A stretch of 17,318 bases of DNA from Candidatus Thorarchaeota archaeon (GCA_038893995.1 JAWAQK010000051.1:1-17318), one strand, 5' to 3'. Counted from the first letter of the stretch, positions 3,476 to 16,979 are shown. Notes: generated by a model not told the origin, from the letters alone. Translations and numbers: made by a program.

Positions 3476-3580
3476 CGGATGTGTCTTTCAGTGGCTCGAG
3501 AACAATCATCGTACCGATCTTGCCTGTCACGAGATCTCAGGTCAACTACGAGGCCGGGACACAAGACCCTGGTCCGGCCC

Positions 3581-3594
3581 AAATATGTTAATAT
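3581..3594 (+). promoter_or_regulatory. Putative BRE/TATA promoter of the small Cys-rich gene
   Basis: AAATATGTTAATAT is an isolated AT-rich island in GC-rich DNA, about 60 nt before ATG 3656. Confidence 0.5.
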
Positions 3595-3655
3595 GTCACC
3601 AGAAGACCTCATACGGGGGTCTATCAACCCAGAACACTCGACGGAGACAGGACAA

Positions 3656-3790
3656 ATGACTTGCCCGGAATTCAATGCCAGTGAGAAGAAGTGTGGCGTG
3701 GACGGCTTCAAGTTCTACGAGGGAATGAACATACCTTGCCATACGCCAGGCATAGACAAGACAAAATGCCCTCGTTTTGCAATGAAGTAG
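3656..3790 (+). CDS. Small four-cysteine putative metal-binding protein (44 aa)
   Basis: MTCPEFNASEKKCGVDGFKFYEGMNIPCHTPGIDKTKCPRFAMK with C-x9-C-x14-C-x9-C spacing. A GGAG SD-like site and a TATA-like element lie upstream. It is the C-terminal part of track ORF 3479..3790. Confidence 0.65.
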   Translation: MTCPEFNASEKKCGVDGFKFYEGMNIPCHTPGIDKTKCPRFAMK

Positions 3791-4049: not shown

Positions 4050-4583
4050 TCACTGGCAGTATCTCTGAGCGAGCGTCGATGCCACACATGTGAACAACTC
4101 GGAGATCCCTTGTCCCGTCTTTGCTGAGACCTCAAAGAAGTCTGCGCCGATCCTGGAGGCAAACGCGATCGCATCTTCTCTGTTTGCACCTATCTCGCTC
4201 CCTAAAACATCACACTTGTTGGCAACGACAAATGTGATGCAGTCAGGTGCCTCGGATCTCACCCTCTCCATCCATTCATTCAGATTCTCAAGTGTGTAAT
4301 ATCGTGATGCATCAAATACCAAGATCGCCGCCCTCGACCCTCTGAAGTAGTCCTGGACCACATCATGGAACCTTGGCTGTCCGCTCAGGTCCCATATGAT
4401 GAGGGTGACCTCTGAACCATTGACTGCCATCTTCCTGCTGGCAAACCCGGTGCCAATAGTCATCTTCATGTTCTCGTCGAACCGATTCTCCGTGAAGCGT
4501 ACGAGTATGCTGGTCTTTCCTACGCCTCCTTCACCAACGAGGATCGTCTTGAAGATCGTCGGCCTGGTGAGCACCAAGATCAC
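4050..4583 (-). CDS. Rab-like small GTPase (Ras superfamily)
   Basis: G1 GEGGVGKT, G2 TIG, G3 WDLSGQ, G4 NKCD, G5 SAK. RabF-like segments IGTGF, TLIIW, RFHDVV, YFRGS, LVFDAS. The true start may be TTG 4577 or GTG 4574, behind SD-like GGGAGTTGTGA. Confidence 0.93.
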   Translation of the reverse strand: MILVLTRPTIFKTILVGEGGVGKTSILVRFTENRFDENMKMTIGTGFASRKMAVNGSEVTLIIWDLSGQPRFHDVVQDYFRGSRAAILVFDASRYYTLENLNEWMERVRSEAPDCITFVVANKCDVLGSEIGANREDAIAFASRIGADFFEVSAKTGQGISELFTCVASTLAQRYCQ

Positions 4584-4595
4584 AACTCCCTGAGA

Positions 4596-5978
4596 CTACT
4601 CTATTCTCACTAGTTTTCCGCCGCCAGACCTCAACAGCCTCTCGGCACGCCCTGTGATGCCTAACCACATGACAATGAAGCTCAGCAGGAGTATAGATGC
4701 CACGACGGGGTCGATCACACTCCTAAGGAACATGTTGCCTACAATGGTCAGGAACAGACCTATCCCAAGGAACAGCGGACGTGAACGCATGGCAGTTCTG
4801 GCTGCCCTCATCCGGAGATATAGGTGGATGTAAAGGACTGCTGGGAATATCATCAGGATGAACCCCGTAGCGCCCATTACGACGGGGATATTTGGATCGA
4901 GGCGAGGATCGGCTGGATAGAGCCGCACCAAGTAGATCAACGCAGGGATGGCCGCCACCAGAGGTACTACCTCAGCGCGTTTCCAGTTCAGTGCGAGCAC
5001 TGCGGAGAATCCCATGAAGGTATTTGCGAAGACTGCCAGGAAATAAGAGGTGAATATCACTTCGACCACACCGGCCTCAATAGCCCCGACGTTTCGTACC
5101 GTGATGAGGATGTAGGACAGACCGGTGAAACCGAAGAAGAGGGAGAGAAAAAGGGTAGCTGAAGCACGACTCTGACGATACCTCGCCAACAGGTAGGCGG
5201 ATGTTCCAAGCGCGACCGCTGACACGGCCGCCATGATCGCAATCCCCACGAGGATATTAGGTACAGCAGGTGCACTCGTCATCAGCATTGAGAACACCAG
5301 AGCGATGACCGAATACGGAAGGGTGTAGCTGAGTAGCTCGGGAGCCCTGATATTAGGCATCAAGAAGGCCACGCCCGTAGAGGCTAGACAGATGAAACGA
5401 ATCAATGCTATCAATATGTGAAACGATGGATCGTTGCTGACCATGAATAGATAGTAGAGAGGTAGAGTGAACAGTAGCAGTGTCAGCGAAACGTTCGTCA
5501 ACTTGCGGGTCTTGAACGCTAGCGCGCCGAATAGTCCTGCCGGTATCAGGTACATGAACAGGACCATGATCATTAGGGGCACCAGAATGATTGACAGCAC
5601 CCATGGGAACAGTCCCGACATTGCAGATGCAACCAGGAGGGGTAGGACAATGGCCCAGAGTATAGGAGAGTACTTTCGCAATCCAAGTATCCAGAGTGCC
5701 GACCATGATGTCAGAGCGGAGCCTGACAAGAACGGCAACAGGAACAGCGGGACATAATCGACTGTTGCGAAAAACGTCACCCCGGCATAAATGATCAGTG
5801 AGGCCGTGCCAATCAGGGCCAGACCACTGCCAACTGCGTATAGCGGTGTGCCGTACTCCTTGGGATCCAGTGACATCTGCTTCAGACGTTTCTGCGTGTG
5901 TCGAACGATTATGAGACCCGCAAGTATGAGTCCCACTCCCATGAAGAGTTCAGATGCTTGATACATGGCTACCTGCAA
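4596..5978 (-). CDS. Polytopic membrane protein, about 15 TM helices, with apparent internal duplication of a 7-TM unit
   Basis: About 15 hydrophobic segments by eye, short basic loops and no soluble domain. Start is TTG 5978 (GGGGGA upstream) or ATG 5966. Confidence 0.85.
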   Translation of the reverse strand: MQVAMYQASELFMGVGLILAGLIIVRHTQKRLKQMSLDPKEYGTPLYAVGSGLALIGTASLIIYAGVTFFATVDYVPLFLLPFLSGSALTSWSALWILGLRKYSPILWAIVLPLLVASAMSGLFPWVLSIILVPLMIMVLFMYLIPAGLFGALAFKTRKLTNVSLTLLLFTLPLYYLFMVSNDPSFHILIALIRFICLASTGVAFLMPNIRAPELLSYTLPYSVIALVFSMLMTSAPAVPNILVGIAIMAAVSAVALGTSAYLLARYRQSRASATLFLSLFFGFTGLSYILITVRNVGAIEAGVVEVIFTSYFLAVFANTFMGFSAVLALNWKRAEVVPLVAAIPALIYLVRLYPADPRLDPNIPVVMGATGFILMIFPAVLYIHLYLRMRAARTAMRSRPLFLGIGLFLTIVGNMFLRSVIDPVVASILLLSFIVMWLGITGRAERLLRSGGGKLVRIE

Positions 5979-5993
5979 CTTTGTTCGTTCCCC

Positions 5994-6380
5994 CTAGAAC
6001 ATCTTGGTTGCCCAATCCTCCAGATACCCCAACCTAGAGCTATCTGTTCTGAGGATATTTCCTATTTCCTGTAACAGATCGTCAGACACCCTATGGTCGT
6101 ACTGCACGAGGGTGTTTCTGATCTTGCCGATGACCGTGTGCACGTCGTCACTACGATCATCGCAGACCAGGACCACAAGAAGGTCTCCTGACGAGGAGAT
6201 AACGAGCCGAAAGCGGCCCATCACCAGCTCTCTCACCTCGGAGCCAACCATCATCCTCGATACCGTATTGACTGCTGAGAGGAAGCCACCAAGCAGGGCC
6301 TCGTCAGCGTGGAAGTTGCCCAGCTCCAGGCTTGCCAATGTTTCGCCGCCCTGATTGACCAAGTAGAATCCCTGTATCAT
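5994..6380 (-). CDS. Longin/roadblock-like small alpha/beta protein
   Basis: MIQGFYLVNQGGETLAS (beta-hairpin), DEALLGGFLSAVNTVS (helix), three strands, then helices. This is the pattern of longin-fold proteins such as the small TRAPP subunits and SRX. ATG 6380 is preferred over TTG 6389. Confidence 0.75.
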   Translation of the reverse strand: MIQGFYLVNQGGETLASLELGNFHADEALLGGFLSAVNTVSRMMVGSEVRELVMGRFRLVISSSGDLLVVLVCDDRSDDVHTVIGKIRNTLVQYDHRVSDDLLQEIGNILRTDSSRLGYLEDWATKMF

Positions 6381-6390
6381 CTCGACCAAC

Positions 6391-6651
6391 TCAGAAAGAC
6401 TCCATCCATTCTATTGCGCGATCGACGGATTTCTTATCTTCATCCTGCGGCACGGTGCCTAACACCTCCACATCCCTGATAAGAAATGCACGGTCGACCA
6501 TGAGAAGCACTGCGTCTCCGGACTTGCACTTGGCAGTGACGAAGACAGGTACTCGTGTGGCCTGGAGTACGGAGTCCTCGTCGACAACTACACCATCGAT
6601 GATCGATCCACATTTGGGACACTTGACCTGTTTCAGTATGCGTCTTCCCAT
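6391..6651 (-). CDS. Small Zn-ribbon-like protein (86 aa)
   Basis: CPKC ... CKSGD ... LLMVDRAFLIRDVE. SD AGGAGTGAT precedes ATG 6651. Confidence 0.75.
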   Translation of the reverse strand: MGRRILKQVKCPKCGSIIDGVVVDEDSVLQATRVPVFVTAKCKSGDAVLLMVDRAFLIRDVEVLGTVPQDEDKKSVDRAIEWMESF

Positions 6652-6687
6652 GACCATCACTCCTTGTCATTGTCGTTTCCGATAGCA

Positions 6688-6716
6688 AGGTCAGATTCGT
6701 ACTGACCTATGGTCAG
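6688..6716. promoter_or_regulatory. Operator-like overlapping inverted repeats
   Basis: AGGTCAG-N7-CTGACCT (6688-6708) and CTGACC-TAT-GGTCAG (6702-6716) share the central half-site, in a divergent intergenic region. Confidence 0.45.
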
Positions 6717-6743
6717 CAGTCTATGACACGATACTTCGGGGGG

Positions 6744-6773
6744 CAATATTCATTTCTCCTCAATTGATTTAAG
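6744..6773. promoter_or_regulatory. AT-rich divergent promoter region
   Basis: CAATATTCATTT and CAATTGATTTAAG (TTTAAG 6768-73) lie between the divergent starts at 6651 (-) and 6848 (+). Confidence 0.4.
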
Positions 6774-6847
6774 CAGATTCTGTACGGACTGGTACCGAAT
6801 CACAGGAGAGCCCTATCACACCTGTGATCAGATTGGAGTGAACAGTA

Positions 6848-7114
6848 ATGGTAAAGGCCTATGTTCTCGTCAAGACGGTGGCAGGCACAGAGGACAGAGT
6901 CCTGAGGAGTTTCCACGAGATACAGAGCATTGAGGAGGCGCACAAGGTCTTTGGTCCCTATGACATAGTGATAGAGGTCAGGGGCAGGGATATGGAATCT
7001 GTCGTAGACATTGTCACCGGGAAAATACGGACCGTCGAGGGTGTCTTCGACACACAGACTCTTCTAGTCATCGACGTTGACCTGGACCTTTCTCAGAGTA
7101 GCCTGGCCTCCTGA
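6848..7114 (+). CDS. Stand-alone Lrp/AsnC ligand-binding (RAM) domain protein, no HTH
   Basis: KAYVLVK...EAHKVFGPYDIVIEV...KIRTVEGVFDTQTL; 88 aa; GGAGTGA SD upstream. Confidence 0.88.
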   Translation: MVKAYVLVKTVAGTEDRVLRSFHEIQSIEEAHKVFGPYDIVIEVRGRDMESVVDIVTGKIRTVEGVFDTQTLLVIDVDLDLSQSSLAS

Positions 7115-7183: not shown

Positions 7184-8017
7184 ATGGAGAAAAACCAGAG
7201 GAGCGTGTGGATTATTCCCGTAAGGACCCTCTCGAGGAAGCCGTTTGTCCTGATGCTTCAGGATGATGCTGGCGAGATACGACCAGTGCGACTCGATATT
7301 GACCTTGCCAACAGCAGCAATGCGCTGATCGTACTCGATGAGTACAACGATACATGCTGGGCCTGGATAGGTCGCGATGTCAGTATGCCGACGAAGATGC
7401 ATGCTCTGAGGATTGCAAAGAGTATCCAGAAGAGCGGCCATCGCGTGGGCGATACCACAATTGGAATGGCAACCTCCAAGATCATCGAGGTGATCGAAAG
7501 AGACGAGTCGGACCCTGAGATGGCTGCCAACATAGCAGCATTCCGAAAGGCACTATCACGGAAGTGGCGATACGAGGACAGTGTGCTCGCATACGACGAG
7601 GAAGCTGCATCAGAGAAGGAACCGGAAGCGCCTCACATCCGGGAATCAGCACCCCGGACTGAGACAACACACGTCAGACCTGAGACACCAGTGCGTCACG
7701 TGTCGTCAGCGACGACCGCACAGCCTAGATCTACTACTCCCTCTGTTCCCAGGGCCACCAAGACAGAAGCAATGCCTGACGTTGAGAAGAAGATGGCATT
7801 TCTGCTGTACTCCGCCGTCAAGAACTCGGACCTCGTCTACACGGAGCGTTTCACTCGTGACGGAAAGATGGGCATAAAGATCGAGGCTCCTGGGGCAATG
7901 GTCATAGAGGCCACGGTTGAGGGAAGCGACGTTGTTGTGAGTCCCAGTAACTTCGGCGACTCCGAACAGGCCAAGAGGGTGAGGACCGACTACGAGAACT
8001 GGCTCGCAAGACTATAG
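7184..8017 (+). CDS. Gelsolin-domain protein (one gelsolin domain, Pro/Thr linker, small C-terminal domain)
   Basis: ANSSNALIVLDEYNDTCWAWIGRDVSMPTKMHALRIAKSI matches the gelsolin repeat core (N-x-x-D...ILD...W-x-G...long helix). TTAAAT TATA-like element at 7160-65. Exact start is uncertain. Confidence 0.72.
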   Translation: MEKNQRSVWIIPVRTLSRKPFVLMLQDDAGEIRPVRLDIDLANSSNALIVLDEYNDTCWAWIGRDVSMPTKMHALRIAKSIQKSGHRVGDTTIGMATSKIIEVIERDESDPEMAANIAAFRKALSRKWRYEDSVLAYDEEAASEKEPEAPHIRESAPRTETTHVRPETPVRHVSSATTAQPRSTTPSVPRATKTEAMPDVEKKMAFLLYSAVKNSDLVYTERFTRDGKMGIKIEAPGAMVIEATVEGSDVVVSPSNFGDSEQAKRVRTDYENWLARL

Positions 8018-14561: not shown

Positions 14562-16979
14562 CTACTTGTGGTAGGTCAGGACCACTGTACCTGATAGGGG
14601 TACAACCCTCAGATACGCTGAGTCGCTACCCTGAAACCTCTCCAGGACGCCGGCACCATAGACTTTGACCATTGACACGGACCGGGACGAAGGAGTGTGA
14701 ACATGAAGCTCATCTGGCAGACGATCCAGACGTATCTCGACCTGATGCTGGTTCGCCGAGGAGCCCAACTCCACTGACACTATGCCCGTCCCAGTCGGAG
14801 CTCTCTTTAGTGACAGTGACTCACTACCTACGAACCATTCTTCTGGGATGCCTGGCAGCACCACGAGGTCATGCCGATTCTCTCGAAGCATCATCATCCG
14901 TGCGAGTATCAACACATCAGCAGCTGCCAGTATCGAGCACCCATCACCCATGCCGCTACCGGGCAGGTCGGGGTCGGTAAACTCCGGTACGAAACCATAG
15001 TCGGTCACATAGGGCTCGATACCAGCCAGCAGTGCCTCAGTTTCATCACGTTTTCCTCTCGCTGCGTATGCACATGCCAATCGAAGTGCAATGTGGGTGC
15101 TGTACCTGTTGTCACCAGGCCTGTGTCGGACCAGTCTTCTCCTCATGTGGTTCTGCTCGACCCACTTGAGAAACGTATCTGTGAGCTGGTCGCCAAGTAT
15201 GTTTAGTCCCGTCAGCCCAGTGACACTGATCAGGTCGGTGACATCGATGGGACCGGCCATACTGTCTAGGGCCTGTTTCAAAGCAGAGGGGTCGCTCTGC
15301 AGTTGCCGGACGATCGAATCCACTTGGGCGCGACATCGCTCTACAATCAGTGCGGACCGAGTCAGGAGACTCGAGGCATTGCGTTCCCTCGCATACGACA
15401 TGATGGCTTCCGATGCTGCCAGTATCCACAACAGGTCAACCAGAGTACTGAAGTTGAACTGGGTGGACATGCTCTGGCGCTGGGGGGCCTGTACCCCTGA
15501 CCCCTCCGCCATCTGAGAGATGGTCTCCATCTCAGATCGCAGTCGTGCAACCCAGTCGTCAGAGACCGACTCATCATCCGGCGTCGAGGGTTCTCGCGTG
15601 ATGGGGGCATACTGTTGTACGTCCTCGGGCGGAATCGATGCCAACGTACGAGATAACATACCGTCCAATGCTTCAGTCCAATTGGGAGCATTGCTCTCAA
15701 TATACGTACGGATACTGTCACTTGGCCGATACAAGTATGCCTGCAAGATTGACCAGACAAAGGGAGGAACGTCACGGTCGGACACAGACAGACTTCTGCG
15801 ACTCACTGCCTCGGCGATCTCCATGCAGACGGACTCCGTGAGACTAGCCGTACCGAACATGTACAGGGCGGACAGGACTCGGGCATACTCACGCCAGCCG
15901 TATTCGCCGCGTGTACAACTATCACCCATTACCAGTCCGAGGGCCCTACAGGCCAGGACCATCTTGCTCTGTGCCAGAAGACGAAACAGGACCTGTGATG
16001 GGAGGTTGATGCTCGTCGATGCCTCTGAGAACCCGTACCACTCACCGATGACCCTGTCCCTTGCCGATGAGTCCTTTGCAAGAGTCTTGCTGTGAGACAT
16101 TGCACCCGTTTCCAGTGGTGACACGAAGAAGAACTCAGCGGTCCGTGCTGGTTTCAGTCGTACGTCATATCGCAAGACGACCGTGCCAAGACCACGTGCC
16201 ATGCTGAAAGAGGTGTCGGACCGTGGGACGGTATCAAGAATATCTGATGAGAGGTGTGGATTGTCAACGGATGTCATGACTACACGACTTGGCAAGTGGC
16301 TCATCTCGAGCGCTGGTACCCCATTGACCATAAGTCTGAGAGATCGAGGGTCCATCTCGATGCTCTCGATGGGTTCAACACCGCATAGAGAGAACGGTCG
16401 AATAGCGACAAAGAAGCTTGTCGATGCCTCATCTAGGGACAGATTCTGTACGCGCAACTCGTTGTAGACTGCCTCGCTGTGTCCATCGCCAGCAAGGTAG
16501 ACAAGCCGAGTTATCACAATGGGTCCTGACTGGTACTCTGTCGTGTATAGGGGCTCTCCATCTGTCTCTTGCTTCAATTGAAGACCTGCATCCTCAGAGA
16601 GCGAGGGGAACACCAGCTGACCCCCCTCGGAATACCAGATGTCGAGAGAACCCGTATGATTCATCGGCCAGAGAAGACCGTGAGAGCTGACGAATGCGGC
16701 TCGCCTTCCTCCCACGCGACCGAGACACACCCAGTCAGTCCTGAAGTCGTTACGGAGGCCGTCTGGCGCTCCCGCCACGGTCCTGAGCTTCAGTGCCTTT
16801 GAAACCCATCGTGGGACTATCTTGGGCTCCGCAGCTGAGAAGACAACACTGTTCAGTTTCAATTGGATTCGGTCCAGCTCCTGTTCCGGAGTCAGGCCCT
16901 GAAGGTCGTCAATACCTATTCTGTGGAGCCTTGCCACCTTTCTGAAACGCTCAAGAGTCTGTCCCAGATCCCCATTCAA
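14562..16979 (-). CDS. Large six-hairpin glycosidase-like protein, possibly degenerate
   Basis: Beta-rich N-terminal region, long helical core and beta-rich C-terminus beginning LVVLPGIPEEWF...APTGTGIVSV, as in (alpha/alpha)6-barrel GH-like proteins. Has a PEF..P...GMGDG...AAAD segment. ORF is confident; fold call is an inference. Confidence 0.6.
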   Translation of the reverse strand: MNGDLGQTLERFRKVARLHRIGIDDLQGLTPEQELDRIQLKLNSVVFSAAEPKIVPRWVSKALKLRTVAGAPDGLRNDFRTDWVCLGRVGGRRAAFVSSHGLLWPMNHTGSLDIWYSEGGQLVFPSLSEDAGLQLKQETDGEPLYTTEYQSGPIVITRLVYLAGDGHSEAVYNELRVQNLSLDEASTSFFVAIRPFSLCGVEPIESIEMDPRSLRLMVNGVPALEMSHLPSRVVMTSVDNPHLSSDILDTVPRSDTSFSMARGLGTVVLRYDVRLKPARTAEFFFVSPLETGAMSHSKTLAKDSSARDRVIGEWYGFSEASTSINLPSQVLFRLLAQSKMVLACRALGLVMGDSCTRGEYGWREYARVLSALYMFGTASLTESVCMEIAEAVSRRSLSVSDRDVPPFVWSILQAYLYRPSDSIRTYIESNAPNWTEALDGMLSRTLASIPPEDVQQYAPITREPSTPDDESVSDDWVARLRSEMETISQMAEGSGVQAPQRQSMSTQFNFSTLVDLLWILAASEAIMSYARERNASSLLTRSALIVERCRAQVDSIVRQLQSDPSALKQALDSMAGPIDVTDLISVTGLTGLNILGDQLTDTFLKWVEQNHMRRRLVRHRPGDNRYSTHIALRLACAYAARGKRDETEALLAGIEPYVTDYGFVPEFTDPDLPGSGMGDGCSILAAADVLILARMMMLRENRHDLVVLPGIPEEWFVGSESLSLKRAPTGTGIVSVELGSSANQHQVEIRLDRLPDELHVHTPSSRSVSMVKVYGAGVLERFQGSDSAYLRVVPLSGTVVLTYHK

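Follow-up and report, generated by a model that had tools for sequence, protein, structure and literature searches.

Bacterial conservons (AGPS; CvnA-CvnD; the Mfp operon) encode a membrane sensor-kinase-like protein, a roadblock protein, a DUF742 protein and a Ras-like GTPase (PMC13343842, PMC13621833, PMC11343762, PMC4316618). [quoted passage not shown] The stretch of DNA analysed here, 17,318 nucleotides (nt) from Candidatus Thorarchaeota archaeon (GCA_038893995.1 JAWAQK010000051.1:1-17318; hereafter the window), carries a four-gene cassette that encodes a small zinc-ribbon-like protein (the Zn protein), a protein with a predicted longin fold, a polytopic membrane protein built from two seven-transmembrane (7TM) bundles and a Rab-like small GTPase. 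On balance, sequence comparisons, structural models and analogy suggest that this cassette is probably a self-contained, membrane-coupled small-GTPase switch, wherein the GTPase would be regulated by the longin and Zn proteins, themselves held by the double-7TM protein.

Other described systems share parts of this arrangement. In the MglA/MglB polarity module, the gene for a small Ras-like GTPase adjoins that for a roadblock/longin-class regulator (PMC9481161, PMC13408092). An Asgard operon that combines a LAMTOR1-like gene with those of a Rab-like GTPase and a DENN protein was described by Liu et al. (10.1101/2020.10.19.343400), and a structural study of Asgard GTPases by Tran et al. states that in the cultured strain MK-D1 the GTPase genes generally share no operon with genes for roadblock, longin or TRAPPC3 proteins (PMC10933270). 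Asgard 7TM proteins and structural clusters resembling G-protein-coupled receptors (GPCRs) have been listed in a 2026 preprint, which remains at catalogue level and gives no gene context (10.64898/2026.10.28.762692). A full-text literature search revealed no description of the cassette, although most subscription journals lay outside the search and an earlier description is possible. An initial annotation of this DNA, made from its sequence, had put forward that no characterised equivalent was known. That statement calls for a qualification, as the conservons are characterised and follow the same logic with different parts.

The four open reading frames (ORFs) of the cassette are all co-oriented on the minus strand and are packed within positions 4050-6660 of the window. 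They are listed here in the order of transcription, preceded by the region that separates them from the adjoining gene.

6661-6847, no strand assigned: divergent intergenic region between the cassette and a gene for an AsnC-ligand-domain protein (sequence only)
6391-6660, minus strand: Zn-ribbon-like protein, 89 amino acids from GTG 6660, probably 86 amino acids from ATG 6651
5994-6389, minus strand: protein with predicted longin fold, 131 amino acids from TTG 6389, 128 amino acids from ATG 6380
4596-5978, minus strand: polytopic membrane protein, 460 amino acids from TTG; alternative start ATG 5966
4050-4583, minus strand: Rab-like small GTPase, 177 amino acids from GTG; alternative in-frame starts TTG 4577 and GTG 4574

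Depending on the starts chosen, the stop-to-start gaps measure 1-10 nt (Zn/longin), 15-27 nt (longin/membrane) and 12-21 nt (membrane/GTPase). The true start of the Zn gene is likely to be ATG 6651, because its homologues begin with MGKKTL and the corresponding ESM Atlas record starts at residue 4. Most homologues of the longin gene start (MIQ...) at the position of ATG 6380. Purine-rich sequences resembling Shine-Dalgarno (SD) sites can be read ahead of three of the four genes, namely GGAG about 10 nt ahead of ATG 6651, GGGGGA at 5993-5988 ahead of the membrane gene and GGGAG at 4590-4586 ahead of the GTPase gene. The longin start has no clear SD site and sits 1-10 nt past the stop codon of the Zn gene, a position that would fit translational coupling. 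The intergenic region, presumed to contain the cassette promoter, includes the A+T-rich sequences TTAAAT (6767-6772) and AATATT (6745-6750). These data agree with the initial annotation in its description of four co-oriented genes forming one compact cassette, in its choice of ATG 6651 and in its placement of SD-like sites before at least three starts. Its estimate of gaps of about 10-20 nt was right as to the short spacing, and the measured range of 1-27 nt is wider.

The cassette is strongly conserved in other genomes. Every locus examined (approximately 44 loci from three Asgard GTDB families) has the genes for the Zn, longin and membrane proteins side by side and in one orientation. The initial annotation had named unconserved synteny among its grounds for refutation, and the opposite is observed. 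The position of the GTPase gene varies, lying directly after the membrane gene as in the window, directly before the Zn gene, or in convergent orientation. No fifth neighbouring gene is conserved in 13 extended loci. The cassette is far beyond what chance would produce: each of the four frames is conserved at the protein level, and the gene order recurs in approximately 44 loci of other genomes. Of 400 genomes searched in the phylum, 51 carry the membrane family, a count that takes in the genome of the window. The family occurs in 43 of the 85 other genomes of the window's GTDB family, in all three genomes of a second family and in three of 19 genomes of a third, and a fourth family yields a single marginal match (E 7.5e-4). 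Many genomes carry two or three copies of the cassette membrane gene.

Within this set, distance matrices of the cassette proteins are correlated, most strongly for the membrane-longin pair (0.90), followed by longin-Zn (0.84), membrane-Zn (0.81) and the pairs that include the GTPase (0.66-0.74). When the membrane, longin and Zn parts are each traced to their closest relative, that relative belongs to a cassette of like gene order (with the GTPase last or first) in 27 of 27 cassettes, within-genome paralogues included. The correlated distances and same-order neighbours show inheritance as a unit, which falls short of proof of contact. The named homologues all come from metagenome-assembled genomes of Asgard archaea (Candidatus Thorarchaeota, Promethearchaeota and Candidatus Lokiarchaeota), and the host is for this reason an Asgard archaeon, as had been supposed, and most likely one of the Thorarchaeia. 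Almost all of the DNA at 4050-6660 is present in two hot-spring metagenome DNA runs of one study (0.98 and 0.95 of sampled words), either of which may be the source sample; the sequencing runs listed as containing the stretch are DNA runs, with no RNA run among them.

A second family of cassettes resides in the same genome (2.3 Mb, 91% complete). On contig C3, positions 50696-57636 hold two tandem cassettes that have the gene order of the window and encode a Zn protein, a 124 amino acid protein, membrane proteins of approximately 480 amino acids and a Ras-family GTPase. The membrane proteins have 13-15 predicted transmembrane (TM) helices, and two of them stand in tandem in one cassette. Profile alignment with hhalign matches the window's membrane protein to that of the second family (E 4e-7 over 455 columns) and likewise the Zn proteins of the two families (E 2e-10), and by these alignments the members of each pair are remote homologues. 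No relation is detectable between the longin profile and the 124 amino acid protein (E 0.18). A tryptophan near the C-terminus is kept in both small proteins of the second family. Cassettes of this type were found in 35 of the 85 genomes of the window's GTDB family, their order being kept in each of the 12 loci compared, and a cassette of either type is present in 57 of the 85. The window's own genome also has Zn-like genes adjoining other GTPase genes (contigs C3 and C48) and contains 23 matches to the cassette GTPase profile.

The GTPase matches the Pfam Ras family (PF00071) with E 1e-40 and 139.4 bits, well above the gathering cut-off of 21.6. Its motifs comprise G1 (GEGGVGKTS, 4509-4535), the switch-I residue T42, G3 (DLSGQ, 4377-4391) with the catalytic Gln, G4 (NKCD, 4209-4220) and G5 (SAK). 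Across 31 cassette GTPases (alignment A5), the sequences GEGGVGKTS, T42, WDLxGQ with its catalytic Gln, NKxD and SAK are invariant. All 60 of the 60 best PDB sequence matches are Rabs (E 3e-33 to 4e-29), including Rab35, RABA1a, Rab2, Rab11 and the Thorarchaeota Rab 7ezb (E 3e-33 to 3e-31) as well as Sec4 and Ypt proteins; the assignment to Rab rather than to Ras, Rho, Arf or Ran is drawn from these sequence matches. The C-termini are variable, and no prenylation cysteine (CC, CXC or CAAX) is conserved among the 31 proteins. The window GTPase ends in ...RYCQ, whose cysteine is not conserved in the alignment. Because G1-G5 and the catalytic Gln are invariant and a C-terminal cysteine is not, the protein is, as judged from its sequence, a complete Rab-like switch that lacks the usual lipid anchor.

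The membrane protein consists of 15 TM helices and has no soluble domain, according to an AlphaFold2 (AF2) model of high confidence (pLDDT 92.7, pTM 0.89). The parts delineated by this model, all encoded on the minus strand, are as follows.

5361-5966, minus strand: repeat 1 (7TM), residues 5-206
5277-5345, minus strand: linker TM helix, residues 212-234
4653-5261, minus strand: repeat 2 (7TM), residues 240-442
4623-4649, minus strand: short amphipathic C-terminal helix, residues 444-452

This architecture of 7TM, linker TM and 7TM is a real internal duplication. The N-terminal half aligns with the C-terminal half over 187 columns (hhalign probability 97.5, E 7e-12), whereas controls with reversed or column-shuffled profiles give E values of 0.003 or greater. 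The two repeats are parallel, because the odd linker helix separates them. Family-wide, the loops contain 351 lysine and arginine residues inside versus 24 outside, which places the N-terminus outside and the C-terminus inside. The seven-helix topology with N-terminus out and C-terminus in, derived from the model helices and this positive-inside count, holds for both repeats. Conservation is concentrated near the cytoplasm: the TM halves on that side average 2.44 bits versus 1.74 for the outer halves, and inside loops average 1.98 versus 1.38 for those outside. Nearly all invariant residues are cytoplasmic (E214, Y218, R266, T275, A329, P339, G443 and T157/T161).

No fused forms of this protein are evident, as none of the 70 family representatives obtained by an exhaustive profile search of 1.84 billion representatives exceeds 502 amino acids. 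The output of the family is therefore not a fused domain. The membrane protein is rare, with three matches obtained when 5.8 billion proteins were searched by word index.

We compared the model with solved structures by using VIA-align, for which helical models can reach Z of approximately 14 by chance. Residues 238-447 superpose on 7TM bundles of GPCRs, with Z 16.5 for the designed GPCR-like fold 8oyx and Z 16.3 for ADGRL3; about 200 amino acids are aligned with root-mean-square deviations of 3.2-3.6 (3.6 over 200 amino acids for ADGRL3). The bundles matched belong to adhesion, class C, Frizzled and class A receptors (Z 11-16.5). Among the top 50 entries (Z 10.7-16.5), 49 are GPCRs or designed GPCR-like folds, and the remaining one, at rank 40, is LYCHOS/GPR155, which carries a 7TM GPCR domain beside a transporter-like domain. 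For the ESM Atlas model of the same half, the closest structures are 7TM modules from GGDEF and SpoIIE proteins of bacteria, with weak TM-scores (0.37-0.43). No sequence match to the 7tm Pfam families was found even at E <= 5. Because helical bundles reach Z of approximately 14 by chance and Foldseek gives nothing better than E 0.1, we propose for the membrane protein a receptor-type 7TM shape, as predicted by the model, and do not claim homology.

Microbial rhodopsins, including helio- and schizorhodopsins, were considered separately as an identity for this protein and rejected. The invariant and near-invariant columns of the family alignments (A2 and A6) contain no lysine, so there is no conserved Schiff-base lysine in TM7. 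No rhodopsin is among the top 50 VIA-align fold matches.

The AF2 model of the 131 amino acid protein, built from a 36-sequence alignment, is of moderate confidence (pLDDT 76.6, pTM 0.72). Its elements (strands 5-12 and 17-22, helix 30-46, strands 52-57, 60-67 and 70-76, helices 82-96 and 103-117) follow the longin-like order b-b-a-b-b-b-a-a, whereas a roadblock protein would have the order a-b-b-a-b-b-a. Foldseek comparison with the PDB matches the model to AP2 sigma2 (E 5e-6), the Ykt6 longin (E 6e-5) and a TRAPP subunit (E 8e-5), and further to zeta-COP, sedlin (TMq 0.67-0.69) and the VAMP7 longin; roadblock and LAMTOR chains rank lower, with TMq of about 0.4. The model thus points to a longin fold. 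Residues G15, G35 and W126 are invariant (alignment A3). At the sequence level, the longin profile finds nothing significant in the PDB, the best lead being Mon1 LD1 at E 1.6. Elsewhere in the genome, several matches to the longin profile lie at the N-termini of proteins of 400-720 amino acids (contigs C38, C6, C50 and C20), and one 283 amino acid protein (C7, 23495-24346) is matched by both the GTPase and the longin profiles.

The Zn protein contains a candidate metal site, C14-P-x-C17 ... C45 ... D49. Residues L9, C14, P15, C17, P38, C45, D56 and W85 are invariant over 33 homologues (alignment A4), and a histidine at position 49, four residues past C45, is kept in at least 90% of them. No Pfam or NCBIfam family matches the protein, with zinc-ribbon families appearing only as sub-threshold rows (E <= 5), and its alignment profile finds nothing significant among PDB sequences. 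The ESM Atlas model is of low confidence (pTM 0.51); its nearest neighbours are small proteins restricted to Asgard archaea and a bacterial CPXCG Zn_ribbon_21 cluster (TM 0.51/0.65). A zinc ribbon has paired knuckles on a small beta structure, and what the family offers is one CPxC knuckle together with C45 and H49 (Asp in the window). By its sequence and model, the 89 amino acid protein is plausibly a zinc ribbon, and this identity is not established.

With respect to the individual proteins, most of the assignments made in the initial annotation are borne out. The Rab-like GTPase agrees with the Ras family match and with closest solved relatives that are all Rabs, and the longin fold with the order of elements in the model and its matches to solved longins. 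The tandem-7TM protein devoid of a kinase or other soluble output domain is reproduced by the AF2 model and the controlled duplication, and no HATPase or HisKA domain is present. The view that this protein is receptor-like rather than a transporter is upheld at the level of fold. As to the Zn-ribbon label, the protein carries a CPxC...C...(H/D) site, and the identity itself rates as plausible.

How might these proteins act together? Both small proteins end in a conserved, tryptophan-containing C-terminal helix of the form ...W-x-x-x-[FL]-COOH, with the consensus ...W-A-x-K-M-[LF] in the longin protein and ...W-M-x-S-F in the Zn protein, the last residue being hydrophobic. In the window these tails read ...EDWATKMF, including the invariant W126, in a segment of the longin protein that is poorly modelled (5997-6035), and ...IEWMESF, including the invariant W85, in the helix that ends the Zn protein. 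We infer that the double-7TM protein is the membrane partner of the GTPase and that the longin and Zn proteins would be held, by predicted contact, on its conserved cytoplasmic face. The two tryptophan tails may dock one per 7TM repeat, much as the C-terminal helix of G-alpha docks in a GPCR. The longin/Zn pair could then set the nucleotide state of the GTPase as a GEF, a GTPase-activating protein (GAP) or both, by analogy with longin Rab GEFs, roadblock/MglB and CvnB/CvnC. Switching of the GTPase at the membrane, or its recruitment there, would thereby depend on which state the 7TM protein is in. A predicted complex of all four chains (GTPase, longin, Zn and membrane partner) has a score that is non-specific under a control in which the GTPase was replaced, and it counts neither for nor against binding.

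This scheme resembles that of the conservons in being a four-gene operon, in which a Ras-superfamily GTPase is encoded along with one membrane protein, one member of the roadblock/longin fold class and one small accessory protein. CvnA is a histidine-kinase-like sensor, whereas the cassette has an all-TM protein without HATPase or HisKA domains. CvnB is an MglB-type roadblock protein and its counterpart here has a predicted longin fold; CvnC is a DUF742 protein, whereas the Cys/His Zn-ribbon-like protein shows no DUF742 match. The cassette GTPase is Rab-like, and the Ras superfamily is the only sequence family that the two systems share. The hosts are Actinomycetota in one case and Asgard archaea in the other. 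Sharing its logic with the conservon while differing from it in every part, the cassette is an analogue of that system and not a member of it. MglA/MglB likewise has a GTPase gene beside that of a roadblock/longin-class regulator. However, the cassette GTPase has the canonical DxxGQ and is Rab-like, its regulator would be a longin rather than a roadblock protein, and MglA/MglB has no 7TM or Zn partner.

Eukaryotic Rab regulators built on longin platforms (Mon1-Ccz1, the TRAPP core, DENN/folliculin) and the Asgard LAMTOR1/DENN operon similarly combine a longin/roadblock-class protein with a Rab-like GTPase. The latter operon is found in the same kind of host, but the cassette has no DENN or LAMTOR partner. 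Its longin is a single domain of 131 amino acids with no detectable sequence relation to Mon1-Ccz1, TRAPP or DENN (the Mon1 LD1 lead is not significant). Unlike the longin-platform GEFs, it has the double-7TM and Zn proteins as its conserved partners, and a GEF role for it is suggested by analogy. The membrane protein shares with GPCRs and prokaryotic 7TM receptors the seven-helix bundle, the orientation with N-terminus out and C-terminus in, and a short amphipathic helix after TM7. Prokaryotic sensors of the 7TMR type are fused to GGDEF, SpoIIE or HisKA domains, whereas the cassette protein is a covalent tandem of two bundles with neither an extracellular nor a fused output domain. Moreover, in place of a heterotrimeric G protein its partner would be a monomeric Rab-like GTPase, reached through the longin and Zn proteins. 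The likeness to GPCRs is in shape only, as there is no sequence similarity to 7tm Pfam families.

Several observations weigh against the proposed switch. Correlated divergence is expected for any linked genes. The GPCR-like match of the membrane protein (Z 16.5, falling to 10.7 at rank 50) is only modestly above the level that helical bundles reach by chance; it comes from the C-terminal repeat, and Foldseek comparison of the whole model with the PDB yields nothing at E < 0.1 (best E 0.12). The outer face is the least conserved part of the protein, and no ligand site was identified. By fold, the longin protein is matched best by longins of coats and SNAREs and not by those known as GEFs, and its sequence has no Pfam or NCBIfam match at E <= 0.01 and no relevant one at E <= 5. 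Finally, in the Zn protein of the window Asp49 (6514-6516) replaces the histidine presumed to be the fourth ligand, with C14, C17 and C45 kept.

The strongest competing explanation is that the double-7TM protein is a passive anchor, in a Yip/PRA1-type Rab-receptor role, or an effector controlled by the GTPase, and not a sensor, with the longin and Zn proteins serving as adaptors. We regard this as somewhat unlikely. The GTPase has no conserved lipidation motif and would therefore need a protein anchor. In addition, the extracellular face, with its short and poorly conserved loops, gives little sign of a conserved ligand site, and the membrane protein is the fastest-evolving part of the cassette (mean within-type distance of 0.63 versus 0.36-0.44 for the GTPase). 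However, receptor families, too, typically have outer faces that evolve rapidly, receptors are what the fold comparison matches, and the presence of several divergent paralogous cassettes per genome suits diversified inputs better than a generic anchor. We rank the receptor direction ahead of the anchor or effector direction, though not by much. A fully specified version is in our estimation unlikely; in it, the double-7TM protein would be a true receptor, and a signal-dependent change in its two GPCR-shaped bundles would pass to the tryptophan helices, docked one per bundle, and make the longin/Zn pair an active exchange factor for the Rab-like GTPase.

Quite improbable, in our judgement, is a primitive unit for membrane trafficking or remodelling, in which the GTPase and longin protein would mark or shape a membrane domain and the polytopic protein would be cargo or tether. 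The best fold matches of the longin protein (AP2 sigma2, zeta-COP, Ykt6, TRAPP subunits and sedlin) would suit such a role, as would the proximity of the cassette GTPase to Rabs; Asgard genomes are rich in parts of this kind (10.1101/2020.10.19.343400). Yet fold-level similarity of a longin cannot separate these roles, neither a SNARE nor an adaptor extension is attached to the longin protein, and genes of the coat, SNARE-helix, TRAPPC3 or ESCRT kinds are not among the conserved neighbours of the cassette.

We give even less credence to a transporter or channel that is gated or regulated by the three soluble proteins. Fifteen TM helices and an internal duplication are compatible with a transporter, and the weak Foldseek rows of the membrane model include CLC, MATE and LYCHOS. 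These rows, however, have TM-scores of 0.12-0.15 (CLC and MATE) and 0.27-0.31 (LYCHOS) with E >= 0.1, whereas all but one of the top 50 VIA-align entries are GPCRs or GPCR-like, the other being LYCHOS. The repeats are parallel, conservation lies at the cytoplasmic ends and not along a mid-membrane pathway, and no Pfam or NCBIfam family, those of transporters included, matches the protein (to E <= 5). That the four genes are unrelated neighbours, or that the small ORFs are not genes, finds nothing in its favour beyond the absence of a Pfam family for three of the four proteins, and it is refuted by a gene order kept in approximately 44 loci and 12 second-family loci at 20-55% protein identity, with all four frames conserved as proteins.

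A membrane-coupled GTPase switch remains the reading that we favour. The membrane signalling module first proposed for these genes is sustained as to the cassette, the folds, the synteny and the Rab-like GTPase; regulation by the longin and Zn proteins is a proposal that we share, and the membrane protein may sense a signal, anchor the GTPase or be itself the target. Asgard archaea carry dozens of small GTPases. Since the GTPase genes of MK-D1 generally lie outside regulator operons, matching a GTPase to its regulators from genome layout is hard. The cassette is an exception, in which one Rab-like GTPase is paired with one longin, one Zn and one membrane protein. Because this pairing is repeated in diverged paralogous sets, cognate partners can be cloned and tested directly. 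For a single GTPase switch of archaea closely related to eukaryotes, the cassette names a membrane partner that can be tested and regulators that are likely.

Were the GTPase indeed controlled by the 7TM protein, the prokaryotes most closely related to eukaryotes would possess a pathway from receptor to small G protein, resembling bacterial conservons in its logic and GPCRs and longin GEFs in its shapes. The way in which a Rab-like GTPase that lacks a lipid anchor reaches the membrane would then be shown as well. Should the receptor interpretation prove true, this would be an archaeal pathway made from the fold classes to which eukaryotic GPCRs and Rab GEFs belong, with a possible relation to the origin of these.

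The genes that flank the cassette are metabolic or unrelated, and encode POR subunits, an AsnC ligand-domain protein, GNAT, GalT, GalK, a flavoprotein and an aldehyde dehydrogenase. Three further ORFs of the window have no assigned family: a small cysteine-rich ORF between the POR genes and the cassette (3479-3790, plus strand; no Pfam or NCBIfam family), a 277 amino acid protein with a middle section rich in Pro, Thr and Glu (7184-8017, plus strand; no Pfam or NCBIfam family) and an 805 amino acid ORF (14562-16979, minus strand; no Pfam family at E <= 0.001). Immediately divergent from the cassette, positions 6848-7114 on the plus strand encode a stand-alone AsnC/Lrp ligand-binding-domain protein of 88 amino acids that has no helix-turn-helix domain. 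A link between AsnC/Lrp genes and the cassette is not conserved across the other loci examined. On contig C48 of the same genome (11544-13868), a GTPase gene and a gene for a Zn-like protein of 168 amino acids are followed by one for a full-length AsnC/Lrp regulator.

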